From: a virus
Taxonomy: Duplodnaviria; Heunggongvirae; Uroviricota; Caudoviricetes
IMG/VR virus record: IMGVR_UViG_3300021963_008171
Coordinates: 10,995-74,994 of that record
DNA: 64,000 nt
Strand: one strand, 5' to 3'
Notes under the pieces: generated by a model
Databases searched by the model: none
The model's input: the letters and a program-made list of their open reading frames with translations, nothing else
What the model was told of the DNA's origin: nothing
Made by a program: the position numbers and the translations under genes
In this document: positions 3,633-53,825 of the stretch, one piece after another
Layout of the letters: each line of letters opens with the position of its first letter
Position numbering within the stretch: position 1 is the stretch's first letter

Positions 3633-3679
3633 ATTAATATTTAATATTTTTATCAGGGGGGATTTTTGTCTTTCAGTCG

Positions 3680-3799: not shown

Positions 3800-3822
3800 T
3801 CCCTCTCCTGGGATAGTGTGGA

Positions 3823-31861: not shown

Positions 31862-32764
31862 ATGAAAGTAATTTGGGTCCTAGAAAATATCAGGAAAGAC
31901 CATAAATTTTTTTTACCAGAAATAGAACTTCTTGGATTGATCGCTTCTATTTCTAATTGGAAATTACTGTATCCAGAAACAAACACGCATCTTTATTGTG
32001 ATTCCACAGTACTCGAATATCTAACCAAGATAGAAATATTAGATCTCTGGGATAACGTACACACAGAAGAACTTTGCACAGAGGACAAAATAAACAGAAG
32101 GGCTTTCTGGGCAGCTTCAAAAATTAAAATTCTAAGAAATATAGAGGCTCCTTTTATAATAATGGACTGTGATCTTTATTTTAAAAAAAGATCTCTAGAT
32201 CTTGATTCTTTTCAAAAATTTGACATAGTAACAAATCAGATAGAAGATGGATTGGGATACTATCCAACAAAGAGAGATCCTATTATAAAAGAAATGAATG
32301 ATCCTTTTAAATACAGATCCTCACACGCATTCAATGTTGCCTTTCTTTATATAGGCTGTGAAAAAATTAGAAGGGAATACACAAATTTAGCATATTCATG
32401 GATGGAAGATTTATCTTCAAAAAATCCAGACATTGGGATTTTAACCGGAAAGCATATGATTTTCTGTGAACAAAAGATGCTAAAGGAATTTTCAGATCTT
32501 TATGATTCTAAGGTAATATCCCTAGCAGATCATATGATAAAAGGAGCGGAAGAAAGAATACCTATGATGGATGGATATGAATCTTTAAATCTTAGAGATT
32601 CAGATTATGTGCATCTGCACAGATTAAAAAGCAGAGTTAAATTCAATTCCGGGCTGTTTATTGATACCAGAAGTGATATCATTAAATCTATATACAATCT
32701 AAGTCCAGAGAGATCTAAGAAAGCATTCTCAGCATTAAAGCTCTCTAATCAGGATCTATTCTAA
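31862..32764 (+). CDS. hypothetical protein (contains IIMDCDLYF, a possible DxD motif)
   Basis: 300-codon ATG ORF. No confident family assignment. Confidence 0.55.
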   Translation: MKVIWVLENIRKDHKFFLPEIELLGLIASISNWKLLYPETNTHLYCDSTVLEYLTKIEILDLWDNVHTEELCTEDKINRRAFWAASKIKILRNIEAPFIIMDCDLYFKKRSLDLDSFQKFDIVTNQIEDGLGYYPTKRDPIIKEMNDPFKYRSSHAFNVAFLYIGCEKIRREYTNLAYSWMEDLSSKNPDIGILTGKHMIFCEQKMLKEFSDLYDSKVISLADHMIKGAEERIPMMDGYESLNLRDSDYVHLHRLKSRVKFNSGLFIDTRSDIIKSIYNLSPERSKKAFSALKLSNQDLF

Positions 32765-33380
32765 CCTTTCTTTTATCCGAAATGATGTAATCGTAAATTA
32801 CATCATTTTCTATTTCTACTCCAATATATTCTAGCATCCTTGCAATTTCTGAAATGTTATGGCCGACAAAAAGATCTTCATAATAAAATATAGGCCACGA
32901 ATTTTGTTCTGCTATTGAGGTCATTTTATAGGAAAAATATTTGAAAGATTCGATTTCATTCTTTAGTCTTTCCCGATCTATTTTATTTACATCATATATC
33001 TTAGGAATATCCCACCCAATCTTAGAATCTAGATTTATTAAAAGACTTTCTGCCTGTAATCCTTTATCTCTTCTATCCAAAACTATAACCTTATCAAAGA
33101 ATTCTTTCATCCAATCAGTAAATCTTCTTTCATCGTTTCCTGTCGATTTTTTGGGATGCTGGCTACATCCAAAAAGGGTTTTAGTTAATACCTGATCGTA
33201 TTTAAAAAAAGGATCTATATAATCAAAATCAAAACCTTCTTTATAATATGTAACGTAATTTTTTGGATTATATGGTTCATAGAAACATTGAAATCCCTTT
33301 GGATGTAAATGCGATTCCAACATTCTATATAAGGAGGTTGAACCTGTTCTTGGCCTAGCTAATATTGCTATTTTACTCAT
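32745..33380 (-). CDS. Stf0-type sulfotransferase-like protein
   Basis: 5'-PSB-like loop ILARPRTGSTSL and 3'-PB-like VIVLDRRDKGLQAESLL. Paralogous to the two upstream genes. Confidence 0.7.
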   Translation of the reverse strand: MSKIAILARPRTGSTSLYRMLESHLHPKGFQCFYEPYNPKNYVTYYKEGFDFDYIDPFFKYDQVLTKTLFGCSQHPKKSTGNDERRFTDWMKEFFDKVIVLDRRDKGLQAESLLINLDSKIGWDIPKIYDVNKIDRERLKNEIESFKYFSYKMTSIAEQNSWPIFYYEDLFVGHNISEIARMLEYIGVEIENDVIYDYIISDKRKVRIDPD

Positions 33381-33407: not shown

Positions 33408-33989
33408 TCAAATTAATCTCTTTCCTGATTTCCCTCCTCTTAATTTATTCTGAGGATTTACTATGTTAATTTTAGGGGTAAACCCTAGATAAGATGCTAT
33501 TTTTTCACCTCCCGTGTTATTGAAATATAGATCTTCGTATGTTACCTGTATACAGTCCTTTAGTGATTTAAAATATTTATTTCTTATTACTATTGATTCG
33601 TGAACGGATCTTATCCTTTCCTCGTTATCCAATAGAAATTCGTTATTTATTTCATAATATGAAACGTCCCACTTATCATTAACTAAATTATTATGCCACC
33701 TATTATGAACGTTTGCCCAAACTACGCTTTCTGCTTGAGCCATAGAATCATTCCTTGTTAAAACTATTCTTTTATCAAAGAAATCCTTACCATTATCATA
33801 ACTCCATCTATTATCAGTTGATATCTTAACTATACACTCATTCATCTTTTCCAATTTAATTCCTTTAAAAAATTCCTCATGTTTAGGATTTAGCAACTCG
33901 TGATAATACGTTATACCGGTCTCAAGTTCTAACCATTCCCCCAGAGATCTTGATCCAGTCCTGTAGTCGGTGTATATTAATATTCTCAT
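33408..33989 (-). CDS. Stf0-type sulfotransferase-like protein
   Basis: ILIYTDYRTGSRSL and IVLTRNDSMAQAESVVWA. Confidence 0.7.
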   Translation of the reverse strand: MRILIYTDYRTGSRSLGEWLELETGITYYHELLNPKHEEFFKGIKLEKMNECIVKISTDNRWSYDNGKDFFDKRIVLTRNDSMAQAESVVWANVHNRWHNNLVNDKWDVSYYEINNEFLLDNEERIRSVHESIVIRNKYFKSLKDCIQVTYEDLYFNNTGGEKIASYLGFTPKINIVNPQNKLRGGKSGKRLI

Positions 33990-33992: not shown

Positions 33993-34523
33993 CTATATCA
34001 ATTGTTTTTTCATATTTCTATATCTTTTAGATCCTATTTCGAATTTTGATTCAAATTCTAAATAATCCTCAATTTTCTTAAGACCCTCTTTTGAATAAAA
34101 TAATTCCTCATATGTTAAATGAAGACATTCTATTAATTTTTTAAATTCCACATTTTCAGAAATTATTTTATTTTCTATTTCTTTAATTTCTTGCTTGTTT
34201 GAATTTAAAAAATCATCCGATATAGAATATGCTGAAAATTTCTTTTCTTCTATTTCAGAATATAATCTACTTTCAGCTTGTTCCCTAGTATTTTCCCTTA
34301 CGAGAACTATTTTTTTATCGAACATATGTTTGATTCTATCATAAGAATCTTCGTCCGGGCAAACCTTGTATATTCCGAATGTGTGCGAATTCACAGCTTG
34401 GTCAAACTCATCGTTTGTTTTATAATGAAATCTTCTATAATAATCACAGCTATATTCTATCATCAAAAAGTTAGCTAATGATGTGGATCCTGTTCTATGG
34501 CTTGTGTATATTAATATTTTCAT
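33993..34523 (-). CDS. Stf0-type sulfotransferase-like protein
   Basis: ILIYTSHRTGSTSL and IVLVRENTREQAESRLYS. Confidence 0.7.
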   Translation of the reverse strand: MKILIYTSHRTGSTSLANFLMIEYSCDYYRRFHYKTNDEFDQAVNSHTFGIYKVCPDEDSYDRIKHMFDKKIVLVRENTREQAESRLYSEIEEKKFSAYSISDDFLNSNKQEIKEIENKIISENVEFKKLIECLHLTYEELFYSKEGLKKIEDYLEFESKFEIGSKRYRNMKKQLI

Positions 34524-35346
34524 TGATGTGCTTTAATATATTATTTGCAATCTCCTCATGCCCACTATAGCTTGGATGATAATCAACAATTTTACCATTT
34601 GTATCGTGCATAATAGTGTGCTTATCTTTGCGTATTTTATATGATATTCCATTATCGCCATCGGAAATTAAATTTTTTGGCTTCTCGCAACATTTAGGCC
34701 AGTAGTCTTCGTGTAGGATAAAAACATTAAATCCTATATTTAAGAGAATTTCATTTATTTGTATAAATCTCCAAACCTCCCTCTCGTAATATTTTTTGGT
34801 TGATATGAATTCTAAAAAAAAGTCTTGCATTAAATCATACTTTTTTTTAGATAATTTTAAATTTTCATTACGTAAATATTGCCCGGTGTTTGTATAGAGT
34901 AAGGTGTCTTCTCCCCCGTCCTCATAACTCTTGATTATATTATTAATAAAGACGGTTTTTAAGAAATATGGAGATTGATTATCGGGATCATATAAAAAAT
35001 CTCTAGGCTCAATGCACCACCCACCCAGGAGCTTTTGCTGTTTAACTAAGGGGAAGTCATATCTAGCGCTAGTCGATATTTGAATTATGATAATATCGTC
35101 TTTTTTAAAATTATTAAACTCCTTTAATATTCTATCTAAAATAGAATCGTTTGTTGACCCATTTACGCCATAGTTTAAAATATCAAATCCGATTTTTTCT
35201 GCTACATGTTCCGCCCATATTTTTTTTGTTGGATCGATATAATCAAGATATTTTGAATTGTAAAATGATTTAGGATCGCCCGACTTATCCTCTTTGCATC
35301 CGTGTCCCCACGTAAAACTGTCACCAAAAGCCCAGAGTTTACTCAT
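34495..35346 (-). CDS. SGNH/GDSL hydrolase-like protein
   Basis: Block I LWAFGDSFTWGHG and block V-like IVDYHPSYSGHEEIA. Confidence 0.65.
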   Translation of the reverse strand: MSKLWAFGDSFTWGHGCKEDKSGDPKSFYNSKYLDYIDPTKKIWAEHVAEKIGFDILNYGVNGSTNDSILDRILKEFNNFKKDDIIIIQISTSARYDFPLVKQQKLLGGWCIEPRDFLYDPDNQSPYFLKTVFINNIIKSYEDGGEDTLLYTNTGQYLRNENLKLSKKKYDLMQDFFLEFISTKKYYEREVWRFIQINEILLNIGFNVFILHEDYWPKCCEKPKNLISDGDNGISYKIRKDKHTIMHDTNGKIVDYHPSYSGHEEIANNILKHINENINIHKP

Positions 35347-35930
35347 ATTAATTTTTTTTCAAAATTTAAAAAAGAAAACATATTATAATATTTTCTATCC
35401 TCTTTAATCATATTCATCATAATACCATATTGGTCGGGATAAGTACTTTTAATATAATTTTTAATATAATTAGGGCTCCTCCATATATTAAATTCTTTAA
35501 AATTATATCTATCTTTATCGTATGGTTTCATTTTTCCCTCGAGAGATAAAAACAAAGTTAGATCTTTCAGTCTTAAAGCAATCGGCTTTTTATCCTTGGA
35601 TAAATAGGCCTCAAAAATAGTTCTATTCAGAATCCCACACCAGTGTGTTGACCCTAATTCAGAAACAAACAGGTTAATTAATTCTTCCTCCGTAATTCCT
35701 TCCCAGTTACTATGATTGTTCCACAAGCTTAAAATCTCTGTGTGTAGAGCACTATTTAGATGATCCTCAGGGTCTCTTAATATTATAACCCCCCAATTCA
35801 AATTCTTAAATTCGTCCCATCCGGCATCGAGCATAATTACTCCTTTTGTTTCTCCCCCGAAGGATCTTAAATATCTCGTTCCACACTTTAACGGTGTTAT
35901 AAATCTATTATCGATTTGTATTATCGTCAT
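35343..35930 (-). CDS. sulfotransferase-like protein (fourth, divergent)
   Basis: ITPLKCGTRYL resembles the PK.GTT 5'-PSB loop. ILRDPEDHLNSAL resembles the RDP..R..S 3'-PB motif. Confidence 0.45.
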   Translation of the reverse strand: MTIIQIDNRFITPLKCGTRYLRSFGGETKGVIMLDAGWDEFKNLNWGVIILRDPEDHLNSALHTEILSLWNNHSNWEGITEEELINLFVSELGSTHWCGILNRTIFEAYLSKDKKPIALRLKDLTLFLSLEGKMKPYDKDRYNFKEFNIWRSPNYIKNYIKSTYPDQYGIMMNMIKEDRKYYNMFSFLNFEKKLI

Positions 35931-36596
35931 TTAAATACTTTAAAAAATATTCACATTGAACTAATTGGCCTATCTCACCGAATTGATCGTCATTTAGCTC
36001 GTTTTTTGTTTCTTCCTTAATAGTCTGAGCACCAATTTTTTTAAGATGATTGTACAGATCTGTTACATCCCCTCCTATGTAATATGGCTTGTGTATTTTT
36101 TTATCAAACGTCCAATAATAAACTTTAAACCCTATAGATCTAGATAATAGATTAATTAGATTTTCCCAGCTAAATATTTCATCGAGCCACGACTCGTTGA
36201 TCCTATTATCGTGCAATTCCTTTATTGTTGTTAAATTAATACCGCTCAAAAACTCTGGGGTATTCACATGTTTTAATACATACGGTCTAGATGTAACAAC
36301 TCCCCATTATATTGATTAACTATTCTAAAATTTTGAATATCGGACCAACCAATAATGACAATATCTTCTTTCTTAATCGATGCAGAGAGTTTACAGAACC
36401 ACTCAAATATATCATAGTTAGATTGTCCTCCTATAGCATAATTTTTTAAACCAAGATTTAATTTTTCAGAAAGAAGCTCTGACCACGACTTAGGAAATTT
36501 TCCGGACCTGTATTGATTGTAATAATGATATCGACGCTCTTTCGTCTTTCCGAATATAGCGGAAGAATTATCTCCGAATATCCATAAATCGCTCAT
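35908..36596 (-). pseudogene. split SGNH hydrolase paralog (two ORFs, 36273..36596 and 35908..36267, in different frames)
   Basis: The N-terminal piece (LWIFGDNSS...YAIGGQSNYDIFEWF...DIVIIGWSD) parallels the N-terminus of 36593..37291. The C-terminal piece (..DDQFGEIGQLVQCEYFLKYL) parallels DMHFSENGNRQMSEYLYDLI, with the catalytic His position read as Gln. Confidence 0.5.
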
Positions 36597-37424: not shown

Positions 37425-38825
37425 TTATTTTTCTGGGACGAAGTTGTGTGTTATTACGCTACCTAGTAGATTAACCCCGGTAATTCCGTTTAAATCTGTA
37501 CCTGCTACAAATACGTCATCAGGCTCTATGTTTATTGTTGTGATATTACCGTTGTACCATTCTAAATTTATTGAATTTATGTCAGCAACAATTTCATCTG
37601 AGATTACAATTGAATCTGTGTCCTCTATATCACTTGCTATTTTGAATTTAACGATGCCTGTGTTTTTTTCCCTAATTAATAGTTTTTCGTTTGGAGTTAC
37701 CAGTGTACTTCCGTTTAATGATCCATTGGAATATTCTATTCTTGGAAGCCAACCCTGAAATGTTGAGGTTAATTTATTAATAACAGATGCTGAAGAATAC
37801 GTGATTAACTCAGATATTGATAAAGATGATGACCAATTTAAACTCTCTGTTGAAAGTTCGTCTTTATTTAAACCTGATATAGAAATAGATTTAATTACAT
37901 CTCCTATATCAATGGAGTTTAAATCAATGGAAATTTCCTGATCTTCTACAATTTTAATAACCTCGTATTCGCTGGGTGTTCCCGTAGAATTCATGGGATT
38001 TGAGAAATACATAGACCTCCATTTATTGTCTAATTTATTATCTGTATATGTTATTTCAGTTTCCGCTAGTGGTACTGTGTTAGAATAAACACATCCCCCC
38101 ATATCAATAATGGTTTCAGCATCCTCTAATAATAGCGTCCATGTTCTGATCACGTTTGAAATTTTCCCATTTTCTAACGTATTTTCGTCAAATCTATATT
38201 CCTGCAGCATACTTGTACCATCTAGTGTAGATTTTAAATTTGACAGATTCGTTTCATTGTCTATTTTATAAAATGCGGGATATTCATTTTTTTCAAAATC
38301 TGGCAGTATTTTTTTAGCTATAACGTTAGGATTTAAACCGTTATCTATTAATTCGTTTAGATTATCAAATGTAACATTATCATCTGGGTGTAAAAGACAC
38401 GTTTTGGGTAAAATTCCCTCATTGTTTGATTCAAATAGCAATTTTACCATTTCAGACTTATCCCTGCAATAAAGATCGTCTATGATGGCAGTTAAATCAT
38501 ATGCGCATCTCAGATAAAATGTACTTTCGTCTACAACTATAGAAGGTGTAGTCAAGCTATTATTTGGAACTACAATTAACTCCAGTATTATGCTGTTATT
38601 GTCACAAAAATCTTGAAACTTAGAAATAGCAGACTGTGAAATGTGCTTTTTTTTGTAAACTAGTATTAGCTTAGTATACGAATTAGACGTCAAATATGTC
38701 ATTAAATTATCCAATTCTAGAAATTCGATAGTTGTGTGAAAAAGATCAACATCTGTGTTTGTTTCTAAGAATTTTATGTCGTTTTCCAATTTTAAAAAAT
38801 CGGATCCTATTAATACTGCTTTCAT
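37425..38825 (-). CDS. hypothetical protein (466 aa)
   Basis: Long ATG ORF inside the minus-strand operon. No recognisable motif. Confidence 0.6.
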   Translation of the reverse strand: MKAVLIGSDFLKLENDIKFLETNTDVDLFHTTIEFLELDNLMTYLTSNSYTKLILVYKKKHISQSAISKFQDFCDNNSIILELIVVPNNSLTTPSIVVDESTFYLRCAYDLTAIIDDLYCRDKSEMVKLLFESNNEGILPKTCLLHPDDNVTFDNLNELIDNGLNPNVIAKKILPDFEKNEYPAFYKIDNETNLSNLKSTLDGTSMLQEYRFDENTLENGKISNVIRTWTLLLEDAETIIDMGGCVYSNTVPLAETEITYTDNKLDNKWRSMYFSNPMNSTGTPSEYEVIKIVEDQEISIDLNSIDIGDVIKSISISGLNKDELSTESLNWSSSLSISELITYSSASVINKLTSTFQGWLPRIEYSNGSLNGSTLVTPNEKLLIREKNTGIVKFKIASDIEDTDSIVISDEIVADINSINLEWYNGNITTINIEPDDVFVAGTDLNGITGVNLLGSVITHNFVPEK

Positions 38826-38835: not shown

Positions 38836-39417
38836 TTATAAATATTTATTTTTTCTCTCCATTATTTTTTCTTTCAATAAAAATGGAATCTTTTCTTCGA
38901 TACTAAAGGTTTCGTCGTTATATAATAGATGAAAATCGTCTAAAAACTCAGTTTTAAAATTGGTAATATTTCCGTACGATAAATACCAGCTATCAATTGT
39001 AACAGATTCATCGTATGTTCTATCCCTATTTTTAACCCTATTAATACACACGTCCAGCGGCGCATATAGCATAAACATTATGGTTTTGTATCCATTAATA
39101 TTCAACTTTTTGCGCTGTTTCCTTATAGAATCTATATATCTACCAACTGTATCGATGACTATATTATCCCCATGGGCTATAGCTTCTAAAAATGTATTAT
39201 AACTAATATCCTTTGCACTCTCGAAAAACTTAGAAGCCTGTCCTGCCTGATCCTCGCTGAAATCTGTTATTTTAACCCCCATCCCCGAGCCTTTTAATAG
39301 TTTTTCGTATGGGATGTCAACATTAATCTTCTTAAAAGAACTAAAATATCTATCGGAAAATGTAGTTTTACCACTTCCCCCAGAGCCACAAACAAAGACT
39401 GCTATCTTATCTTTCAT
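38836..39417 (-). CDS. P-loop NTPase/kinase
   Basis: Walker A motif VFVCGSGGSGKTTFS at the N-terminus. 193 aa, kinase-sized. Confidence 0.6.
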   Translation of the reverse strand: MKDKIAVFVCGSGGSGKTTFSDRYFSSFKKINVDIPYEKLLKGSGMGVKITDFSEDQAGQASKFFESAKDISYNTFLEAIAHGDNIVIDTVGRYIDSIRKQRKKLNINGYKTIMFMLYAPLDVCINRVKNRDRTYDESVTIDSWYLSYGNITNFKTEFLDDFHLLYNDETFSIEEKIPFLLKEKIMERKNKYL

Positions 39418-39874
39418 TTACCCATTTTTTTATTGATTCAATATCCTCATTGTGTTTAATTAGTTCTGGCTCTGTTTCTAGTATCCATAATTTATCCTTT
39501 AGAATAAATTCAGGCTTTAAAACCCTTATTGAGTAACCCCCGGATGATATCGTGTTAAAAATGTTTTCTACGTAATTAACAAACAAGTGAAATTCCCCGC
39601 ATTTGTTTTTATTAAATCCGGTGTATACCTCAAAATTAAATCCAAGATCCTGGTTGACTATTAAATCACCCCGATACAATCTAAATTTCCTTTGTAAAAT
39701 ATTTTCGTAAATGTCCCAATCTTTTTTTAAAATATTAAGATCTATATCAGAAATATCTCTACTTATTACCCCTTGTAGATTTAAGCTTAAAGATCCTCCG
39801 ACAATTATATTACCCTCTGTGATACTGTAAATTTCTTTGAATATCTCCTCGTAGGGTCCGTGTAGTTTAATCAT
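39407..39874 (-). CDS. minimal nucleotidyltransferase (pol-beta-type fold)
   Basis: IVGGSLSLNLQGVISRDISDIDLNI fits hG[GS]x9-13Dh[DE]h. Confidence 0.55.
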   Translation of the reverse strand: MIKLHGPYEEIFKEIYSITEGNIIVGGSLSLNLQGVISRDISDIDLNILKKDWDIYENILQRKFRLYRGDLIVNQDLGFNFEVYTGFNKNKCGEFHLFVNYVENIFNTISSGGYSIRVLKPEFILKDKLWILETEPELIKHNEDIESIKKWVNER

Positions 39875-40422
39875 ATTAATGTCTTTTTAAATCCACCAGA
39901 TCCTTTAAGAGAAACCCAATTGACCAAAGAATATCTGATCCCGCTAATAACAGGGGTTACCCTGTGTGGTGTGTCGGAATAAAAGATCAATAAGGTTCCT
40001 GTGTTAACATTTGGAGTTGTTAAATTACCATTATCGTCTTTGAATTGTAGATATCCCCCGTCATAATCATTATTGAGTACGATTACAACCGAACAATATC
40101 TTTCTCTGTAGACATCGTCTGAAGAATCTGTATGCCAATTATAATATTCATCGGGTTTGTATTCAGTAAATTGATATCTACCTAGATTTGTTAATTCGTG
40201 TCCCTTAACATTCATGGTTTTTCTTAGAATTTCCTTTAATCTATCATCTAAACCATCAATCTTATCTATAAATCCCACTGATGATTTTCTAGCGTTAGAA
40301 ATACCAGAATTTGCCACTTTTGCTGCGGTTAGATTCAATTCAGTTTTATACTTTATTATACATTCGAAACATTCATCCTCTGTTAAAAATCCACAAAAAA
40401 CTTGAACGTTCCTATTCATCAT
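39871..40422 (-). CDS. 2OG-Fe(II) oxygenase (P4H-like)
   Basis: HxD in NWHTDSSDD, the distal His in DTPHRVTPV, Arg in IRYSLVNWV, and VVIVLNNDYDGGYLQF. Confidence 0.75.
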   Translation of the reverse strand: MMNRNVQVFCGFLTEDECFECIIKYKTELNLTAAKVANSGISNARKSSVGFIDKIDGLDDRLKEILRKTMNVKGHELTNLGRYQFTEYKPDEYYNWHTDSSDDVYRERYCSVVIVLNNDYDGGYLQFKDDNGNLTTPNVNTGTLLIFYSDTPHRVTPVISGIRYSLVNWVSLKGSGGFKKTLI

Positions 40423-40633
40423 TCATCTTTTTTAGTCCGTATTTAATACATTTGTACCATATTCTTTCGTGCAAATAGTATTGAATGGGTTTCCACAGGA
40501 GCTCTGCAACACCAAAGGCTGCCCCAATCTTTATTGATCCGGTTACTATCCACATTGTTAAAAATCCAATCGTAGTACTAAGCACCCTATAGCTAATTGT
40601 TTTTGCTATGTGTCTCTTTTTCTCTACTATCAT
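40412..40633 (-). CDS. DUF2061-type small membrane protein
   Basis: RHIAKTISYRVLSTTIGFLTMWIVTGS...ELLWKPIQYYLHERIW matches the R..KT.sYR...Yy.HER.W pattern as remembered. Confidence 0.6.
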   Translation of the reverse strand: MIVEKKRHIAKTISYRVLSTTIGFLTMWIVTGSIKIGAAFGVAELLWKPIQYYLHERIWYKCIKYGLKKMNDE

Positions 40634-40653
40634 ATATTATATGTGTATAAAAA

Positions 40654-41031
40654 CTATCCTTTGCTTACGTCATATTTTATAGACCCATCAGCTGACATAT
40701 GACCAGTTCTTATAGCAGTACCGCTTATTGCTCCTACCTCTGCTGGCGGTTCATGGTAAATCACATCATATCCTACTCCCCTTCCATAATTAACACTTTC
40801 TATATCAGGTATAACGGAGATAAAAAGTCTCCCGGTTTGTAAATAATCGTTCAGTTCGATTTTTAATTCATCAAAAACTTGCAATGCAGATTTTGGATTG
40901 TTTTCGTCTTGCGGTACGTCTCTAATTGCGACCCAGACATTCTTCCCCTGACTAAATTGCTGATCTATTAACCACTGGTGTCCTTTGTGCCAGTTTTGCC
41001 ATCTTCCGATGTATAACGCGTATTTTTTCAT
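40654..41031 (-). CDS. minimal HxGH-type nucleotidyltransferase (cytidylyltransferase-like superfamily)
   Basis: YIGRWQNWHKGHQWLI carries the (H/T)xGH motif, and ISGTAIR matches the ISxTxxR motif. 125 aa. 4-nt overlap with the APS-kinase gene. Confidence 0.65.
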   Translation of the reverse strand: MKKYALYIGRWQNWHKGHQWLIDQQFSQGKNVWVAIRDVPQDENNPKSALQVFDELKIELNDYLQTGRLFISVIPDIESVNYGRGVGYDVIYHEPPAEVGAISGTAIRTGHMSADGSIKYDVSKG

Positions 41032-41465
41032 ATAGATTCTAGACCCAAAATACTGATAAGTTCCTCGAACGATTCATTCAGATCATCACCATTTACAAAT
41101 GCCTTATAATTATCAACGGGCAGCTCAAATGCTTGTACATGGAGTTTATCCTTTCCTGAGAAATGCGGCCTATTAAACAGTATCTCAGTGACCTCGTTAT
41201 TCGCTTTTAAATCCTCCCTAATTGCACGATAAGGACAAACCATACTTATCACTACATCATATCCTTTTTGGCTCATAAAACGAGCTATTGTAAAGGATCT
41301 TTCTATGTTTCTAATTCTCCCCGAATATGAATAATCAGTATTTGGAAATATCTCTCTTAAATCGTCGCCGTCTATCCAAATTGTTTTTTCGCCCAATCTT
41401 TCTACGAGCATACTAGACATTTGGGTTTTTCCTGTGCCAGGCTGCCCGATAAACAAATAAATCAT
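41028..41465 (-). CDS. cysC: adenylyl-sulfate (APS) kinase-like
   Basis: IYLFIGQPGTGKTQMSS...IWIDGDDLREIFPNTDYSYSGRIRNIERSFTIARFMSQKGYDVVISMVCPYRAIRE aligns with E. coli CysC LWFTGLSGSGKSTVAG...[53 protein letters not shown]. The lid region appears shortened. Confidence 0.7.
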   Translation of the reverse strand: MIYLFIGQPGTGKTQMSSMLVERLGEKTIWIDGDDLREIFPNTDYSYSGRIRNIERSFTIARFMSQKGYDVVISMVCPYRAIREDLKANNEVTEILFNRPHFSGKDKLHVQAFELPVDNYKAFVNGDDLNESFEELISILGLESI

Positions 41466-41476: not shown

Positions 41477-41593
41477 TTAATGGTTATATGTGAACGGATC
41501 TCTTTTTCTGATCTCCTCTATTTTCTTCATGAACTCCTTCTTTTTCCTTCTTTTTTCGAAGTAATCCTTGATCCAGTTTAGTATCTTTTTCAT
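41477..41593 (-). CDS. possible 38-aa very basic protein at the head of the minus-strand operon
   Basis: Not in the track. MKKILNWIKDYFEKRRKKKEFMKKIEEIRKRDPFTYNH, with ATG 41593 and TAA 41477-41479. Confidence 0.3.
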   Translation of the reverse strand: MKKILNWIKDYFEKRRKKKEFMKKIEEIRKRDPFTYNH

Positions 41594-42945: not shown

Positions 42946-45441
42946 ATGAACGATAAGATAAATTTAGTCTATGACGATTGGCCTCTTGATCAGGAAAGGC
43001 CGAATCCCAATGGAGATAAATATTTTCCAGAAGCAAATGCCTGGATGACTGGTGATGGTCCGATGGAGACTCTTCGATACTGCAATTACGTCAACCGAAG
43101 AATGGAAGATGTCGACAAGTACCAGGAGGAAAATTTCTTTTATGTTGTTTGGCATCGACATTCTCTCTATGACAGATTTTTGTATTTTGACAGACTTCCA
43201 ATAGGTGATGATATGATAGGGGCTTTCCAAAGAAAGCCAAATCTTTATCTTCTTTTAATAAACGATCAAGAGATAGAGCCTATAGAAACTATAAGCAAAC
43301 TTGATCTCGCTCTAGAAAGAAATAATATAGATCCAAGAAAGGTTTTTGTAGTTAACAACAATTCTAGAAATTGGGAATATAAAAAAGAATTGGGGAGTAA
43401 TATTAATGTTCATAGTACGAGGGCAATGCCTCTAGCATTGGCTAAAATTCCCAGAAGTAATTTCGTAGAGAATAAAGAAGGGCATTTTTTCATGTCACAC
43501 AACCATTCTTTAAGAGAAAGCAGATCCGCGTTTGTGTGTCTCTTAAAAAAATATGGACTGATCGATGATTTTGATTGGTCTTATTTGAAGCTCTGGAGAC
43601 TACCTGGTGAGGATTGGATAACTATCTATAGAAGAATATTCAACGATTCCGATATGGAATTCATGATGCCAGAAATAGAATATTTTAATTCTTATGGTAT
43701 TAAGAAAAGCAATTACGAGTCACATTTTCCGTGGCTTGATGAAATGACAACTAATAGTCCTTCTTGGTGGGAAACATTTAATTCACAGCAGTACGAGAAT
43801 ACCTATTTTAATGTAACTGTGGAAACACAATATTTTGGAAGGGACCTTCACATAACAGAAAAGTCATTTAAACCCTTTATCCATCTGCAGTTTCCTATGA
43901 TTCTTGCCTCCAGACATCATATAAAACATATGCGGGAGTATTACGGGTATGATTTTTTCGATGATGTGATTAACCACGATTATGATAACGTCGTAAGTGA
44001 TAGAGATAGAATCTTTAGGTTCATAGAAGAACTAAAAAGAATTCAGGAGAATAAAGAATTCTTTATCGATTTTTATAAAAATAACAAGGAAAGATTTCGG
44101 AGGAATCAAGAAATGGTTTATCAATTCACCAATGAATATGATGCTAGCTATTTCAGGGCATTGACAAAATTTGATCACCCAAAGAAAACCCTTAATCTTG
44201 TTTATGATAATTGGGATACCCAAACTAATCGCCCATTAAGAGGCAATTCTGAAGATCTTTACCTAAGTACATTCCACATGAATGTTGACAGTGTAGTTGG
44301 ATCCTTACAATTTGATAGAAGATTAATCAGAAGATATAGATTGGAAGATGTTCCTAAGATAAAAAATGAGACATTCTTTTATTTTGTCACCTTAATTCCT
44401 GGCATCCTAGCGGAGAATTTAAGATCTGGAAAACTACCAATAAATAGAGATGCTATCAACATGCTCAAGAATTATTCAAACTTTAATGTGATAATAATGA
44501 ATGAGCAGGAAGCAGAAAGAAAAGAAACACTGGTTCTTCTTGATAAATGGTCCAAAGAATCCGGCTTAAATCAGCAACAAATTTGGTTTTCTAATAACAA
44601 CCCAAGACTACAAGAATTCAAAGAGGAAATAGGAACTGATATAAATGTTCATTCGACAGTTAGACTTGCTAATTTCACAGCAAATTCTGTTATACATTCA
44701 GTGGGAAGGGTGGAGTTCAAGTCTGAGAAAGACGGGGAATTTTTCATGTGTCACAATAGAAGGCCAAGACCGCATAGATATGGTTTACTATGCTTGCTTA
44801 AAAAGAGCGGGGTTTTAGATGATGTTGATTGGTCTTTAGTTCAAGGGTTTCAGTTCAAGGGAAATAAGCACCCTGAATCCTTCTTTAGAACAATATTTAA
44901 CGATGAAGATATAGAAAACATGAGAGAAGAAATTGAGTACTTCTCTAACATAGAACAAAAGAAAAGTAGATACGAGGAAGAAAGAACATGGTTCGATGAT
45001 AGGGAAAATGAAAATAATGTTCCTTGGAATGAAACCTATGATAAAAATCAGTTGGAAAATTCATATTTCAATATCACAACAGAAACTGAATTTTCATCAG
45101 ATCTGACACACATATCAGAAAAATCTTTCAAAGCTTTCTGTGCAATGCAGTTTCCCATGATTCTTGCATCTGCTCACCACATCAGAGAAATTAAAAAGAA
45201 ATATGATTTTGATTTTTTTGATGATGTGATCAATCACGATTATGACGACGAAGAGAATCACAGAGACAGACTTTTTAAATTTGTAAAAGAGATAAAAAGA
45301 ATAAACGACAACAAGGAGTTCTTCATAGAATTTTATAAGAACAACAAATTTAGATTCGAGGAAAATCTTAGAAAAATAGAGGAGAAAGTAAAGGATCAAT
45401 CAGATTCTGACTTTTTAAAAAGAATATCTGGTATAATATGA
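42946..45441 (+). CDS. tandem-duplicated two-module enzyme, fucosyltransferase (GT10/GT11)-like C-terminal motif in each half
   Basis: The halves (aa 1-~411 and ~412-831) are colinear. Shared blocks: INLVYDDW/LNLVYDNW, NVHST, FFMSHN/FFMCHN, LCLLKK.G..DD.DWS, and HITEKSFKPFIHLQFPMILASRHH/HISEKSFKAFCAMQFPMILASAHH followed by FFDDVINHDYD. Confidence 0.45.
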   Translation: MNDKINLVYDDWPLDQERPNPNGDKYFPEANAWMTGDGPMETLRYCNYVNRRMEDVDKYQEENFFYVVWHRHSLYDRFLYFDRLPIGDDMIGAFQRKPNLYLLLINDQEIEPIETISKLDLALERNNIDPRKVFVVNNNSRNWEYKKELGSNINVHSTRAMPLALAKIPRSNFVENKEGHFFMSHNHSLRESRSAFVCLLKKYGLIDDFDWSYLKLWRLPGEDWITIYRRIFNDSDMEFMMPEIEYFNSYGIKKSNYESHFPWLDEMTTNSPSWWETFNSQQYENTYFNVTVETQYFGRDLHITEKSFKPFIHLQFPMILASRHHIKHMREYYGYDFFDDVINHDYDNVVSDRDRIFRFIEELKRIQENKEFFIDFYKNNKERFRRNQEMVYQFTNEYDASYFRALTKFDHPKKTLNLVYDNWDTQTNRPLRGNSEDLYLSTFHMNVDSVVGSLQFDRRLIRRYRLEDVPKIKNETFFYFVTLIPGILAENLRSGKLPINRDAINMLKNYSNFNVIIMNEQEAERKETLVLLDKWSKESGLNQQQIWFSNNNPRLQEFKEEIGTDINVHSTVRLANFTANSVIHSVGRVEFKSEKDGEFFMCHNRRPRPHRYGLLCLLKKSGVLDDVDWSLVQGFQFKGNKHPESFFRTIFNDEDIENMREEIEYFSNIEQKKSRYEEERTWFDDRENENNVPWNETYDKNQLENSYFNITTETEFSSDLTHISEKSFKAFCAMQFPMILASAHHIREIKKKYDFDFFDDVINHDYDDEENHRDRLFKFVKEIKRINDNKEFFIEFYKNNKFRFEENLRKIEEKVKDQSDSDFLKRISGII

Positions 45442-47105
45442 AAAAGGTACTAATTACAGGATGCAATGGTTTAGTTGGAAGCTATCTAAGAGATCTTTGT
45501 TTAGATAATGGATGGAAAGTTACTGGTGTAGATAGAAACGCAACAAAGAGAATTACCAGAGATTTTAATTACAAATTTAAAAAACTAGACTTATTAATAG
45601 AACAAAATATAATAGATCTTTTTAAAGATGAAAAATATGATGTAGTATTTAATTGTTTTGGAATTAAAGGATCTCCAGTAAGGGCAAAAAATAATCCTGT
45701 TGATTTTCTGTACCCGTCTTTTAAAATAAACACTGAGATAATAAATCAATGTTATTTAAACGACACGTGGTTGGTTTTTGTTAGCTCTGTTGGTGTTTAT
45801 AGCCCAGCAGAAAAATTCTCAGAAGATGATGTTTGGAAAACACTACCATCAGAATCCGATTGGTTTCCGTCTTGGTCTAAAAGAATGGGAGAATTGCTAT
45901 TGGAATCATATCGGGTTCAATATGGATACAACAAATGGACGATAGTAAGACCAGCAAATATATTTGGTGAATACGACGACTTTAGTGGTAGTGGAACATT
46001 GATATCAACCATGGTAAAAAAGGTCTACGAATCTTCTGGAGAGATTGAAGCATGGGGAGACGGCACACCTATCAGGGATTTTGTTTACGGAAAAGACGTT
46101 GCTTTGTCTTTAATAAAACTTTATGAAGAAGAAATAAACGATATAGTTAATTGCGGGTCAGGAATAGAGGTATCAATAAAAGATGTTGTTGAAGAAATTA
46201 TAAAAGCAAGCGGGAAGGAAATCTCAGTAAAATGGGATTCTTCTAAACCTAATGGAGATCTTAGAAGACTAATGGATACCACAAGACAGGAAATTCACGG
46301 GATAATGCCAAAAACCAATTTTTCCGATGCTATACTTAATGTTTATAAATATTACTCAGGTCTTTTCGAAGAGGAGTTACCAGTAATATCTAAAGACGAT
46401 TTGCTCGTCGAAGGTGCATATGTTGGAAAAATATCTGATTTCCTAGAGGAGGATGAATTAGAGCTTTTCAAAGAAATGATAGAGGATGTTAAAGAGTACT
46501 CCTCCGAAGATATTGAAAATAGACTTTCGTGCAAATATAATTATGACGATATAGTAAATGAATATGACCATAATATTCCACCCAGTAAAGTTGCGGAGAG
46601 AGATGCATTTATTCGAAAGAATAAATATCACGTTTGGCAAAAATGGTGGGATTTTAGGTATCCTAAAGAGTCATATTTCAGCGAGATAGCCACAAAAATA
46701 TTAAAGGATCTTTACCCACAGGCTGCCGCTGCTTTGAATGAGGCTAAGATATCAGGATCTATGGCACTTTTTGAAGATGGACATTTCATAGACATTCACA
46801 ACGATGGAGCTAATGTAGGAAGACTTTGTGTAATTATATTCTATCTCTCCGACCCTTCTGCTCATAATAACGGGGGAGGGGAATTAAGAATAATTACCAG
46901 CACAGGAAAAGAATTTATAATAGATCCAGTTTTTGATAATTTCTGCGTGATGGATTTTGCAAAGAATAACATAAAACATGAAGTAAAGATGGTTAATAAC
47001 GGATTTAAAAGATATACCTATATAAATTTTATATCACTCAAAGATGGGATTTTAGAATCAATTTTCCCGAACGAAATAAAAATAGAAAAGAAAAAAATAA
47101 TATGA
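45438..47105 (+). CDS. fusion protein: NAD(P)-dependent epimerase/reductase (extended SDR) plus C-terminal 2OG-Fe(II) oxygenase-like domain
   Basis: N-terminus VLITGCNGLVGSYL, RPANIFG and WGDGTPIRDFVY. C-terminus IDIHNDGANVGRLCVIIFYLSD...GGGELRI...IKHEV...RYTYINF, giving HxD, a distal His and an Arg. Confidence 0.65.
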   Translation: MKKVLITGCNGLVGSYLRDLCLDNGWKVTGVDRNATKRITRDFNYKFKKLDLLIEQNIIDLFKDEKYDVVFNCFGIKGSPVRAKNNPVDFLYPSFKINTEIINQCYLNDTWLVFVSSVGVYSPAEKFSEDDVWKTLPSESDWFPSWSKRMGELLLESYRVQYGYNKWTIVRPANIFGEYDDFSGSGTLISTMVKKVYESSGEIEAWGDGTPIRDFVYGKDVALSLIKLYEEEINDIVNCGSGIEVSIKDVVEEIIKASGKEISVKWDSSKPNGDLRRLMDTTRQEIHGIMPKTNFSDAILNVYKYYSGLFEEELPVISKDDLLVEGAYVGKISDFLEEDELELFKEMIEDVKEYSSEDIENRLSCKYNYDDIVNEYDHNIPPSKVAERDAFIRKNKYHVWQKWWDFRYPKESYFSEIATKILKDLYPQAAAALNEAKISGSMALFEDGHFIDIHNDGANVGRLCVIIFYLSDPSAHNNGGGELRIITSTGKEFIIDPVFDNFCVMDFAKNNIKHEVKMVNNGFKRYTYINFISLKDGILESIFPNEIKIEKKKII

Positions 47106-51011: not shown

Positions 51012-52383
51012 CTTCGTAGAATTTTTTTAGTTCAGGAAAGGTTTTTATAAAATCTGTACCTCTTCTTTTATCGTGTTCATCAACAAACAATACAAAATCT
51101 TTTCTATTTTTTTCAACGTCGAATCCATCCTCTGATATAGCATAGTCATAGATTCTTTTTATCTTTTGAATCTCAACATCGGAAAATCCATAATTATCGT
51201 GTGTGAATTCAGGTGTTGCGTAATAGAATGCTTTTTGAGCAGCTTTGAATATGAGCTCTTTGTGTTCGTCGTTAAGTATTTTAACCGACTGATGCTCTGG
51301 CCATCTTAGATAGGATGTATCTAGCTGTATGGCAGATATCCAATACCTTTCTTTGTTTTGGTATTTCTTTTTTAGCTGGAATATCTTTTCTATTAACTTA
51401 GAATACCCAAACACCGACATTGCGTTAAACGTTGCCATAACGTTCACTGTGACCTTCGGAAGTTCGGTTAGGATAGTTTCTACATTTTCGAAGAAGTGGT
51501 CAAAATTGAGCCCGAAACGGATGTATTCGGCTTGTTCTTTCCATGCTTCACACGAGGTAAATACTATTAGCTCGTTTACCCTGTTTTCCTCAATTATTTT
51601 TTTACACAATTTCACAAATTTTTCTACCAGATTTTTAGGAACACCAAGATTGGTATTGATTGAAAGATTTAATTTTCTATTAGGTTCCTCGGTTTCTGCT
51701 ATGAATTCTAATAACTTCCACGTGTCTTTTGAAAGAAGTGGTTCACCACCAGTTATTCTAAATGTGTGTAAGTCGTTGTAAAGATCTGGCCACCATTCCC
51801 AAAATGCTTCAACGTATGGATTTTCTTCTGAATGCTTGTATGGTATTTGTCCGGTTTCCCTGGGCCATTTAAGATCATTAAAATTTGTTGATGTTGGATA
51901 TCCCCCATGATTTTCTATTTCTTCCATCCATTTGGAAGAAAACATAGGGCTACAATAGGAGCATTTGAAATTACACGTGTTTGAAAAATTAACCTCAACA
52001 TATTTTGGATTGTAATCTGAGCTCCATCTTAGATTTTTAATTTCGTCCATGTGTGGAAATGACCATGGCTCTGAGCTTTTGAAAACCCTATCAGAAAAAG
52101 ATTCTGAACTATCTTCCACCTTCCAACAATAATTACATTCCTCGGGTCTTTGCCCATTTAACATTTCCCTTCTCACCTTCTTTTTGTGCTTGGTGTTGTG
52201 AAGAGCCGATGGATTATTTTCCAGTTCGCTCAAAGGAATTTTATGTGGAATCGGGTGATGACATGAATGCGTCATTCCATTATGAAGATGCATAGTAACT
52301 TGTGTCCACTTAGCGAGACACATCCCACATCCAGTTGAATTTAATTCTTTTCTTGTTTCCTCAAAAATTCTTTGATCGCTCAT
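50989..52383 (-). CDS. radical SAM enzyme (paralog of 48976..50421)
   Basis: SNTCNFKCSYCSPMFS. The N-terminal cluster is CGMCLAKWTQVTMHLHNGMTHSCHHPIPH...ECNYCWKVED. Confidence 0.75.
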   Translation of the reverse strand: MSDQRIFEETRKELNSTGCGMCLAKWTQVTMHLHNGMTHSCHHPIPHKIPLSELENNPSALHNTKHKKKVRREMLNGQRPEECNYCWKVEDSSESFSDRVFKSSEPWSFPHMDEIKNLRWSSDYNPKYVEVNFSNTCNFKCSYCSPMFSSKWMEEIENHGGYPTSTNFNDLKWPRETGQIPYKHSEENPYVEAFWEWWPDLYNDLHTFRITGGEPLLSKDTWKLLEFIAETEEPNRKLNLSINTNLGVPKNLVEKFVKLCKKIIEENRVNELIVFTSCEAWKEQAEYIRFGLNFDHFFENVETILTELPKVTVNVMATFNAMSVFGYSKLIEKIFQLKKKYQNKERYWISAIQLDTSYLRWPEHQSVKILNDEHKELIFKAAQKAFYYATPEFTHDNYGFSDVEIQKIKRIYDYAISEDGFDVEKNRKDFVLFVDEHDKRRGTDFIKTFPELKKFYEDVKNKRG

Positions 52384-53825
52384 TATGCTTTACAATTTAT
52401 TAAAAGTACGTTATTGCCAAGATCCTTCGCCGTGATTAATTCATATTGCATATTATTAATCCCGTCGCTCTTGTAATCTATGGATCTTCTTTGCATTTCT
52501 GTAACAAATCTTCTTTCGTTTCTGGCTGTTGTTTCTCCCTTAGCCCATTTATTGTTTACTAATCCTTCGTCAACATGTGGCATGCATTCAAAATCTCCTT
52601 CTCTTCTAAATGGTATTGGCATATCAGTAACCGAAAAATCCTTCTTCTCAAATTCCACATTTTTATGATCTGCTCTTACTCCTTTTATTAAATCTGGTAT
52701 TTTTTCTGCTGATATATTTTCAAAATCATAATGCAAGACAGGATCTATTTTCTTTGAATGAAAATCCGATATTTGACTAGCATTATCTACGAATTTATCA
52801 AATATAAGTAATTCTGCTATCTCTCCCCTGAAATTTATAGGATTTCCTTTATCTGCATTGGTTCCTAAATACATCGGACTTTTATCTTCGTAATTGAACA
52901 TACCTCCAAATATGTAAGTGGATTTTTCCTCCTTGATGCCCTTTTCGTTAGATTTTCCAAGCTCGTCATTAAGAAAAAAGTTAAATCTGGACTCAGATTC
53001 TTTATACGAAGTTGTCACCCATGTCCATTCTTCGTCACTTCTTTTGAGCCAATTGTAAAACATAGTTTTGTCCTGGTTGTAAACCATGCTTGTTACTGCT
53101 CTTGAATTATTGAAAGAGATTGAATATGGACAATAGCTTTGCTTTCTAAAAACTGGAAATTCTATAAATTGTTTATCTTCCTCCCCTATTAACCATTCGT
53201 TATACTTTTCATTCTGTTGCTGAGCCCGGAATAAAACCGCTATGGTGTGATCTTTGGTTAACAGGTGATTCATTTCTTTTTTGTGAGGAATCTTTATCCA
53301 TGAATCCTCCCCATTAAAAATTGCAACATTCTTCTGATCGTACTTTTTATACACCCTGCAGTTAGAGTATCCCTCGAAATGAGCACGGAAAAAAAGATCA
53401 TCGTCTTCCATTCCCCAATCCCAATAGTTATTAGAATATCCATTTGTTCTCTCCACCTGCTCCTTGGTAAAAAGAACCACCCCGCCAAAGTATTGTTCGT
53501 AATTTAATTTGTAATCATACTTTGATAGTTTGGTTGCTATATGAACAGGATTTTCTCCTGGGTAGGAATAATCACAGTCTTCTGACACTGGTATCATATC
53601 AATATCGTGCCATGCTATGTAATCACATCCGTCATCAAAAGCAAACTTGGCTGCAATGTTCTTCATTAAACCCCGGTTAAAGAGTTTATCGTCCATTTGA
53701 TTTGCAACATAGAATTTATGTTCTATTCCTCTCTTGTTCAGAAATTCTGTCAAGTGCGGAACTAGTTTTTGTAAATGTTCGTATCTATTTCTGTATGGGA
53801 TACAGATTCCAAGTTTATGTTTCAT
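52383..53825 (-). CDS. GT7 (beta-1,4-galactosyltransferase-like) glycosyltransferase with an inserted LamG-like domain
   Basis: Start ATG 53825, forming an ATGA overlap. IPYRNRYEHL..., FNRGLMKN, HDIDMIPV and YFGGVVLFTKEQVERTNGYSNNYWDWGMEDDDLFFR compare with mammalian B4GalT1 [36 protein letters not shown]. The C-terminal tail SDGINNMQYELI... resumes the GT7 fold after a ~230-aa insert. Confidence 0.8.
   Translation of the reverse strand: MKHKLGICIPYRNRYEHLQKLVPHLTEFLNKRGIEHKFYVANQMDDKLFNRGLMKNIAAKFAFDDGCDYIAWHDIDMIPVSEDCDYSYPGENPVHIATKLSKYDYKLNYEQYFGGVVLFTKEQVERTNGYSNNYWDWGMEDDDLFFRAHFEGYSNCRVYKKYDQKNVAIFNGEDSWIKIPHKKEMNHLLTKDHTIAVLFRAQQQNEKYNEWLIGEEDKQFIEFPVFRKQSYCPYSISFNNSRAVTSMVYNQDKTMFYNWLKRSDEEWTWVTTSYKESESRFNFFLNDELGKSNEKGIKEEKSTYIFGGMFNYEDKSPMYLGTNADKGNPINFRGEIAELLIFDKFVDNASQISDFHSKKIDPVLHYDFENISAEKIPDLIKGVRADHKNVEFEKKDFSVTDMPIPFRREGDFECMPHVDEGLVNNKWAKGETTARNERRFVTEMQRRSIDYKSDGINNMQYELITAKDLGNNVLLINCKA

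Follow-up and report, generated by a model that had tools for sequence, protein, structure and literature searches.

A candidate sulfate-activation module of a T4-like phage with a small nucleotidyltransferase in the place of an ATP sulfurylase

How could a phage that encodes an adenosine 5'-phosphosulfate (APS) kinase, but no recognisable ATP sulfurylase, come by the APS on which this kinase acts? The question is raised by a 64,000-nucleotide stretch of viral DNA (positions 10,995 to 74,994 of the IMG/VR record IMGVR_UViG_3300021963_008171; hereafter the window, in which all coordinates below are given), where three small genes follow one another on the minus strand:

41028..41465, minus strand: short-lid APS kinase (CysC-like), 145 amino acids (aa), Pfam APS_kinase; predicted reaction APS + ATP -> 3'-phosphoadenosine 5'-phosphosulfate (PAPS) + ADP
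40654..41031, minus strand: HxGH nucleotidyltransferase (NT), 125 aa, of a distinct family derived from NadM-type nicotinamide mononucleotide (NMN) adenylyltransferases (NMNATs); candidate sulfate adenylyltransferase, ATP + sulfate -> APS + pyrophosphate (PPi)
40412..40633, minus strand: small membrane protein of the DUF2061 family, 73 aa; two hydrophobic helices predicted, Pfam DUF2061

Here, we present evidence from this locus and its relatives which strongly supports the trio as a sulfate-activation unit, because DUF2061 and CysC share operons and a fusion, the NT is fused to APS kinases, and sulfotransferases accompany the module. The NT would fill the vacant sulfurylase slot: it and CysDN are nearly mutually exclusive, and in one contig it neighbours an APS reductase. 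Based on this genomic context, we consider it probable, though well short of certain, that the phage produces PAPS for probable sulfotransferases of its own and that the NT performs the sulfate adenylylation. A preliminary description of this DNA had suggested that the small protein could be a minimal ATP sulfurylase; the part of that idea which concerns a sulfate-activation trio now stands firmly, while sulfate adenylylation by the NT is the best-supported reading of its role.

The three genes are closely packed. The kinase stop and the NT start have the letters ATGA in common, giving a 4-nt overlap, the DUF2061 gene starts after a gap of 20 nt from the NT stop, and it overlaps the next gene, a 2-oxoglutarate (2OG)-Fe(II) oxygenase gene, by 11 nt. 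The first two of these junctions are as the preliminary description had given them, and so are the WHKGH and ISGTAIR motifs of the 125-aa protein (residues 14-18 and 102-108) and the two-helix DUF2061 protein behind it. Its proposal to look for the same neighbourhood in other genomes also bore fruit: the gene order recurs across dozens of independent contigs, and the arrangement is therefore not a matter of chance. Promoter and terminator scans around the trio gave nothing above chance. Next to the kinase on its upstream side, the divergent intergenic region holds a lysine-rich open reading frame (ORF) of 39 aa (MKKILNWIKDYFEKRRKKKEF...; 41477-41593, minus strand), and two related viral loci, L006 and L007, have 39-aa gene calls in this place.

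To judge from its sequence, the window kinase is an APS kinase, and the PAPS-forming step is well supported by homology. It matches Pfam APS_kinase over residues 4-93 only, with E = 5.4e-10 and 39.9 bits (cut-off 21.1), and in a sequence comparison with the PDB 18 of its 19 matches are APS kinases (best 7yq0, 1.5e-7), the last and weakest being a zeta toxin. Its relatives in other viral loci are recognised by genuine flavobacterial CysC with E-values down to 1e-15, and the window kinase itself stays below the NCBIfam equivalog and subfamily cut-offs (e.g. TIGR00455, 40.9 vs 138.7). We aligned it with seven other unfused short phage-type kinases, the fused kinases of phages Sano and DLP_6 and genuine CysCs (alignment A7). 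Invariant in this set are the Walker A P-loop (GQPGTGKT at residues 7-14, with G7, G12 and K13 unchanged throughout), D32-G-D34, R37, R50, P78 and R83. D32-G-D34, R37, Y45, R50 and N53 of the window kinase align with archaeal and flavobacterial APS kinases, in whose structures the DGDxxR motif and a downstream (F/Y)S...R..N block contact APS. The ISPxxxxR block reads V-C77-P78-Y-R-A-I-R83, with Cys in place of Ser. The suspicion that part of the lid is missing proved right, as alignment with genuine CysCs reveals a deletion of 18 residues (the stretch KKARAGEIxxFTGI); the full mobile lid (RDxKGLYxKAxxGEIxxFTG) is short by the same 18 residues in the seven other unfused short kinases, and the fused Sano and DLP_6 kinases are gapped differently in this region. 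The N-terminal extension of CysC, of about 25 aa, is likewise absent from the window kinase.

DUF2061 ties the trio to sulfate activation from the other side. The window protein matches Pfam PF09834 almost end to end (E = 5.4e-16, 59.2 bits vs 23.1, profile positions 1-51 of 52), and in 14 chromosomal loci of the Flavobacteriia type full-length CysC comes straight after a two-repeat DUF2061 gene and is itself followed by CysD and CysN, CysQ usually accompanying them. In Fluviicola (L100), DUF2061 and full CysC form a single protein of 345 aa, and elsewhere the NT and DUF2061 are themselves fused (P0399/L121 and L122). DUF2061 is thus a sulfate-activation gene, and one for which the searchable literature assigns no function. 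It is not always linked to CysC, because single-repeat copies, 49% identical to the phage protein, stand alone in Pelagibacteraceae single-cell assemblies (L096-L099); no sulfate-activation gene was detected in these loci, and the neighbouring genes resemble, by eye, those of ABC transporters.

The module is widespread among viruses. In 79 of 80 viral loci the gene behind the NT is DUF2061, which in most cases overlaps or abuts it, and a kinase lies at most 1.5 kb upstream of the NT in 53 of the 65 loci with enough sequence. The remaining 12, which belong to one sub-lineage, carry the NT and DUF2061 with no adjacent kinase, so that this pair is a functional unit of its own, and its product would have to be usable by host enzymes, which fits APS. 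Among 35 viral loci of at least 18 kb, we found the kinase in 33, DUF2061 in 34, sulfotransferase-like genes in 30 and homologues of the 2OG oxygenase in 28. Three loci (L209-L211) present a tight four-gene cassette, in which a sulfotransferase that is bona fide by its Pfam match (Sulfotransfer_1/3) is joined by an APS kinase of 150 aa, the NT and DUF2061, and bona fide sulfotransferases are packed tightly with the module in L091, L093 and L121 as well. In a census of 84 further metagenomic loci, DUF2061, kinase and NT occurred in every permutation, often with a sulfotransferase. The viral contigs that bear relatives of the locus reach 316 kb. Additionally, L093 holds a variant of the arrangement (6995-7901), in which the gene that overlaps a short-lid APS-kinase homologue encodes a 167-aa HxGH nucleotidyltransferase not orthologous to the NT (FDLLHIGH...RSTTRTI, TagD/RfaE-II-like in appearance), with the bona fide sulfotransferase and DUF2061 just upstream of the pair.

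The company that the NT keeps beyond these viral loci also bears on its role. APS kinase is the fusion partner, in one order or the other, in 36 of the 52 NT-family representatives with a length of 170 aa or more, and many of the fused partners are canonical, full-length CysCs with an intact lid (E down to 2e-61 against Salinimicrobium CysC). CysQ stands next to an NT+CysC fusion in L130, and in L153 CysC-NT occurs in a cellular genome beside EF-G (identified by Pfam), with flanking ORFs that resemble ribosomal-protein genes by eye. Contig L184 carries, at positions 193-3975, a sulfite reductase with a C-terminal TusA domain, then an Fe-S-type APS reductase, then the NT, and no kinase; the reductase is of the CysH type, and its cysteines (CC...CxxC...ECGLH, CAPC) form the pattern that marks Fe-S APS reductases. 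This operon needs APS, and its pathway lacks only the sulfurylase. L184 is a metagenome contig of 4.2 kb with 48% G+C, in which a TrpD-like gene, judged by eye from its N-terminal sequence, follows the NT. Every enzyme of sulfate activation and use except a sulfurylase is therefore found beside the NT or fused to it. Two apparent exceptions were rejected on inspection, the supposed CysN of L153 being the EF-G and the supposed CysD of L184 the CysH-type reductase. Also rejected was the notion that the NT replaces CysQ in the disposal of 3'-phosphoadenosine 5'-phosphate (PAP), as CysQ adjoins the fusion in L130.

The sulfurylase slot itself is empty almost throughout. That the window holds no canonical ATP sulfurylase, as had been noted earlier, is borne out on three counts: the Pfam families ATP-sulfurylase, PAPS_reduct and GTP_EFTU have no match among its 66 ORFs, CysD/CysN probes found nothing in any of its stop-to-stop ORFs, and the RNPxHxxH motif is absent from it and from loci L001-L089. 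CysD/CysN had no match in 1.3 Mb of related viral loci, and the RNPxHRxH motif of Sat is missing from the 84 metagenomic loci; in total, the Sat motif scans took in 173 of about 177 NT-bearing loci. Among these ~177 loci, CysD/CysN occurs near the NT in one. Conversely, all 14 of the Flavobacteriia-type DUF2061-CysC loci with adequate flanks have CysD and CysN and lack the NT. In the whole of IMG/VR, within the limits of the patterns used, CysD patterns occurred on only three contigs and FQTRNPxHRAH on only three, and the 80 NT-bearing contigs that were listed include none of these.

What kind of enzyme, then, is the NT? It has the HxxH Rossmann-like nucleotidylyltransferase fold that is shared with Sat, and its motifs are those of NadM: the signature GRWQNWHKGH corresponds to GRxQPxHxGH, with N at the P position in the window member and P in 83% of the family, and ISGTAIR is the NadM-type SxTxxR motif. 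The window member has no Pfam match, and its NCBIfam matches, to cytidylyl- and adenylyltransferase models, are all below threshold, far below it for NMNAT (PRK01153, 20.2 vs 127; TIGR01527, 16.7 vs 181) and below it for phosphopantetheine adenylyltransferase (PPAT; PRK00777, 18.7 vs 104). Many homologues are named PPAT by the Joint Genome Institute (JGI), PPAT being one of several equally distant fold matches. A single-sequence search of the PDB returned nothing meaningful, and the best E-value of a profile search was 0.0055. The register of GRWQNWHKGH differs from that of QxRNPxHxxH in Sat, and where Sat combines a PUA-like N-domain with a catalytic domain of about 200 aa, the NT is 125 aa overall. 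It also has some 40-55 residues fewer than archaeal NMNAT chains (164-181 aa), and its profile alignment to NMNATs breaks off near residue 79-83, after strand 4. There, the segment with which NMNATs bind NMN is replaced by an invariant loop, N81-Y-G-R-G-V-G-Y88 (G83-R84-x-V-G-Y). This loop and R37, an additional invariant arginine of the family, may be compatible with a small anionic co-substrate. Measured by the criteria of the Sat, CysD, NMNAT and PPAT families themselves, the NT lies outside all four, in a clade of its own with its own invariant motifs. The family is large, with 3,232 clusters at 90% identity, 979 representatives at 50% identity and 312 IMG/VR contigs.

A reason for the phage to make PAPS is provided by four probable sulfotransferases, which the preliminary description had missed. 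They lie 5-8 kb downstream of the trio on the same strand, and are listed here together with the oxygenase that adjoins the DUF2061 gene:

39871..40422, minus strand: 2OG-Fe(II) oxygenase, 183 aa; Pfam 2OG-FeII_Oxy_3 E = 3e-15, phrog_61 E = 2e-30
35343..35930, minus strand: probable sulfotransferase, divergent type, 195 aa; motifs PLKCGTRYL and RDPEDHLNS, by eye only
33993..34523, minus strand: probable PAPS-dependent sulfotransferase, 176 aa, paralogue of 32745-33380; alignments A2/A4
33408..33989, minus strand: probable PAPS-dependent sulfotransferase, 193 aa, paralogue of 32745-33380; alignments A2/A4
32745..33380, minus strand: probable PAPS-dependent sulfotransferase, 211 aa; AlphaFold fold and motifs

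Sulfotransferases are marked by a 5'-phosphosulfate loop, P-[KR]-x-G-[ST]-[ST], and a 3'-phosphate motif, R...S. In the three paralogues, the loop reads PRTGSTSL, YRTGSRSL and HRTGSTSL, and the 3'-phosphate motif R103...E111-S112 (numbering of the 211-aa paralogue) is invariant in alignments A2/A4, as are R11, G13 and S14. The 211-aa protein, which combines PRTGSTSL with RRDKGLQAES (as the patterns PRxGST and RRDxxxQAES, invariant within its family) and has no Walker A motif, was modelled by AlphaFold with a predicted local distance difference test score of 92. Foldseek placed SULT1B1 first for this model (E = 1.2e-4) and Stf0 highest by template modelling score (0.55), with nucleoside monophosphate kinases, which have the same fold, interleaved, and with retinol dehydratase, estrogen sulfotransferase and Cpz8 among the other matches. 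Some homologues of the 211-aa ORF carry PF13469, one is called NodH by JGI, and in L006 and L007 two such homologues lie between the NT and DUF2061. A sulfotransferase profile run against the PDB and a member-wise Pfam search gave weak signals. We call the four ORFs probable sulfotransferases since sequence-profile support for them is weak. The divergent ORF at 35343-35930 has no family match, and is 69-73% identical to homologues at the same place in L006 and L007. The 2OG-Fe(II) oxygenase would probably be the hydroxylase that creates the acceptor hydroxyl; a logic of hydroxylation followed by sulfation has been proposed for bacterial operons of dioxygenase, sulfotransferase and PAPS synthetase (PMC2938197).

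Taken together, a three-step pathway can be proposed. The HxGH / ISxTxxR site of the NT, a putative trimmed descendant of NadM-type NMN adenylyltransferases, would move AMP from ATP to sulfate, yielding APS and PPi, as genomic context suggests. The translationally coupled short-lid kinase is predicted by homology to phosphorylate the 3'-OH of APS to give PAPS, and would thereby pull the unfavourable NT step forward. PAPS may then feed the four same-strand sulfotransferases predicted from fold and motifs, and these would sulfate an acceptor (a glycan, a protein or a metabolite) built or hydroxylated by 2OG oxygenases, glycosyltransferases and radical-SAM enzymes encoded nearby, with sulfation probably following hydroxylation by the adjacent oxygenase. 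As a guess, DUF2061 might tether the NT and the kinase to the membrane, for example near the site of sulfate entry or of sulfation.

Several observations weigh against this proposal. The main counter-example is an Acidobacteriota locus (L118), where an NT+CysC fusion divergently neighbours canonical CysD and CysN, and where the NT is therefore at best redundant. The solved proteins nearest to the NT in sequence and fold are NMNATs, not sulfurylases. The NT has neither the Sat signature QxRNPxHxxH nor the GRD loop nor the extra domains, it has no Pfam Sat match, and the C-terminal third of its structural model, ISGTAIR included, is of low confidence. CysDN is general in flavobacterial hosts, and the searches covered the window and the loci, so that a canonical sulfurylase encoded elsewhere in the phage or supplied by the host is possible. 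On the side of PAPS use, the four sulfotransferase assignments are probable ones made from fold and motifs: Pfam Sulfotransfer_3 stays below threshold for the 211-aa ORF (1.7e-4, 22.4 vs 27, N-terminus only), and hhalign relates the window family to bona fide sulfotransferases only weakly (E = 0.013, probability 3%). Further, Sano-type phages, which carry a short kinase fused to the NT (phrog_10255, annotated 'kinase' or 'hypothetical'), have no detectable sulfotransferase, CysH or DUF2061, a result that for Sano covers the first 50 kb of its 56-kb genome.

Could the PAPS module be real and the NT something other than a sulfurylase? APS would then come from the CysDN or Sat of the host, and the NT would have an accessory part in regulation, in binding of APS, PAPS or PAP, or in some side reaction. 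L118, the cysDN operons that the likely Bacteroidota hosts carry themselves and the absence of all Sat-specific motifs speak for this, but we regard it as unlikely: HxGH and SxTxxR, the catalytic motifs, are kept without change throughout the family, together with further arginines, suggesting an active transferase, while the CysQ of L130 leaves no vacancy in PAP removal. The kinase-less NT+DUF2061 pairs, the operon of L184 with both of its reductases and the near mutual exclusion with CysDN also argue for a part in APS formation rather than beside it. The possibility that kinase and NT together activate a substrate other than sulfate seems to us distinctly improbable. They might make an AMP-X compound that is then 3'-phosphorylated, in the manner of NadR or coenzyme A, or act in the order kinase, NT to supply a nucleoside diphosphate sugar, polyol or similar compound to the glycan cluster. 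The abundance of glycan genes in the window would suit such a role, as would the different nucleotidyltransferase that overlaps the kinase in L093, the Sano-type fusions that occur without sulfotransferases and the position of the short-lid kinase under the NCBIfam CysC cut-offs. It is harder to reconcile with a kinase that keeps its APS-contacting residues, with the many NT partners that are intact-lid, full CysCs of orthologue-level similarity (E = 1e-44 to 2e-61), and with neighbours specific to sulfur, namely the DUF2061-CysC fusion, CysQ, APS reductase, sulfite reductase and sulfotransferases.

That the NT is a plain adenylyltransferase of NMN or nicotinic acid mononucleotide, serving NAD+ salvage or reconstitution during infection and placed among sulfur genes by coincidence, appears very improbable, even if NadM/archaeal NMNAT and NadR match it best in sequence and fold and its GRxQxxHxGH and SGTxxR motifs are NadM-like. 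Every NCBIfam NMNAT score is far under its cut-off (e.g. 20 bits vs 127), a short family-specific loop replaces the region after strand 4, no NadV, Nudix or RNK gene was found among the 66 window ORFs, and APS kinase and DUF2061 accompany the NT systematically, not by coincidence. The preliminary description had held that clustering with NMN enzymes would tell against the sulfurylase idea, and this came out by halves: the nearest solved relatives are indeed NMNATs, but the family stands apart in its own clade and lacks their post-strand-4 segment. Sulfate adenylylation by the NT thus remains the reading that we prefer.

The source of the window, which has about 35% G+C, is a large T4-like phage, with PHROG matches to the Srd anti-sigma factor, a sigma-70 decoy, endonuclease VII and a DNA polymerase exonuclease subunit. 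The locus has no DNA similarity to cultured phages, in which distant fused homologues occur only in phages of Xanthomonas, Xylella and Stenotrophomonas; the sole non-tRNA DNA match to a cultured phage is to Flavobacterium phage vB_FspM_immuto. Short contigs that bear the module were binned with metagenome-assembled genomes (MAGs) of Chitinophagaceae, Bacteroides and Lutibacter. A host among the Bacteroidota is plausible on account of this match and this binning. Carriers of the fused kinase-NT protein are Xylella phage Sano (L001/L117), where annotated genes for a cysteine dioxygenase and a MazG-like pyrophosphatase are found close to the fusion, and Stenotrophomonas phage DLP_6 (L002); the genes downstream of these two fusions were considered as DUF2061 and rejected.

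The window is rich in genes for the modification of glycans and peptides, including epimerases, GT7-type glycosyltransferases, radical SAM/SPASM enzymes and 2OG oxygenases. Among them are an NAD-dependent epimerase that continues at its C-terminus into a 2OG-Fe(II) oxygenase domain (45438-47105, plus strand) and two GT7-type (beta-1,4-galactosyltransferase-like) glycosyltransferases, one of which is fused to a Laminin_G_3 lectin-like domain (52383-55234, minus strand). After a radical SAM/SPASM gene, and divergently from the module, an 831-aa protein is encoded (42946-45441, plus strand) whose two halves of about 415 aa are around 40% identical, indicating an internal duplication, and which has no family match. 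Behind the oxygenase, a second overlapping pair of a kinase and a nucleotidyltransferase-like gene (38836-39874, minus strand) is conserved in L006 and L007: the 155-aa ORF at 39407-39874 has a pol-beta-NT-like GGSLSL...DISDID motif by eye, with no Pfam or PDB match, and that at 38836-39417 encodes a 193-aa P-loop kinase (Zeta_toxin/AAA_33). The commonest additional neighbour of the module is the 466-aa ORF at 37425-38825 (minus strand), which follows DUF2061 directly in many viral loci and has no Pfam, PHROG or PDB match; it could be a sulfation target or an enzyme of unknown kind. Two minus-strand ORFs, 36273-36596 (107 aa) and 35908-36267 (119 aa), correspond to one GDSL-like gene of 228-230 aa in L006 and L007, its split in the window reflecting either a frameshift or pseudogene or a sequencing error. 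Finally, a TROVE/Ro60-like protein (26845-28470, plus strand), together with matches to the HAD_SAK_2 'Swiss army knife' RNA-repair domain and to an RNA-ligase PHROG that were found elsewhere in 1-32 kb, among 37 other bulk-scanned window ORFs, and not mapped to an ORF, suggests a phage RNA-repair set.

In its broadest form, our proposal is that the 110-125-aa NTs are a third, independently evolved class of minimal ATP sulfurylase, derived from NMN adenylyltransferases, that DUF2061 is a dedicated membrane subunit of sulfate activation, and that phage cysC genes belong to self-contained PAPS factories which feed virus sulfotransferases instead of host assimilation; we hold this to be slightly better than an even chance. 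To our knowledge, ATP sulfurylases are of two kinds only, Sat and CysDN, both large enzymes, and the NT would be by far the smallest type. A sulfurylase of about 125 residues would change how sulfate assimilation and sulfation are inferred from genomes and metagenomes, as seemingly 'sulfurylase-less' organisms and viruses may have one. It would also give a function to DUF2061 and to a large family that is unannotated or misannotated, often as PPAT or NMNAT, and could serve as a very small enzyme for PAPS regeneration in vitro. In the literature that we searched, there is no description of the NT as a sulfurylase, of a non-canonical ATP sulfurylase, of a kinase-NT-DUF2061 cassette or of a DUF2061 function.

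Among known systems, the phage module most invites comparison with large freshwater phages, with Flavobacteriia and with the classical PAPS-forming enzymes. APS-kinase genes in large phage genomes are shared with the phages of the COBRA study, passages of which describe cysC auxiliary metabolic genes as abundant and highly transcribed and read them as boosting assimilatory sulfate reduction of the host (PMC10914622); these passages do not mention sulfurylase or cysD, and the NT, DUF2061 and sulfotransferases were not among the terms searched for in them. If our reading is true, such genes would be parts of a virus-run sulfation pathway. With the cysQ-DUF2061-cysC-cysD-cysN operons of Flavobacteriia (e.g. 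Salinimicrobium, and the Fluviicola fusion), the module shares a DUF2061 beside or fused to APS kinase, and the phage DUF2061 probably derives from these operons (46-51% identity to the Salinimicrobium loci and up to 58% to Fluviicola). The Flavobacteriia version has two DUF2061 repeats, full CysC, GTPase-coupled CysDN and no NT, whereas in the phage a single repeat and a short-lid kinase go with the NT, and CysDN is lacking.

Compared with NadM-type NMNATs (M. jannaschii 1f9a, M. thermautotrophicus 1m8k, Synechocystis NadM 2qjo and the NMNAT domain of NadR), the NT is shorter (125 aa vs 164-181), has the GRxVGY loop after strand 4 and the extra invariant R37, scores far below the NMNAT cut-offs and has sulfur-activation genes, not NAD genes, as genomic partners. 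With PAPS synthases (Sat + APS kinase, as in Aquifex aeolicus 2gks and human PAPSS1/2) and with CysDN-CysC/NodPQ, the module has in common the predicted chemistry from sulfate through APS to PAPS and the coupling of the kinase step to adenylyl transfer, by translational coupling or by fusion; as among PAPS synthases, both fusion orders exist, and both systems serve sulfotransferases. Unlike these enzymes, the phage module would rely on an NMNAT-derived domain of about 110-125 aa that has no PUA-like domain, QxRNP or GRD loop and is unrelated to CysD/CysN, its kinase has an 18-residue lid deletion, and a DUF2061 membrane protein belongs to the unit. PAPS synthesis as such is well known, and what is new here is a candidate enzyme class at its first step.

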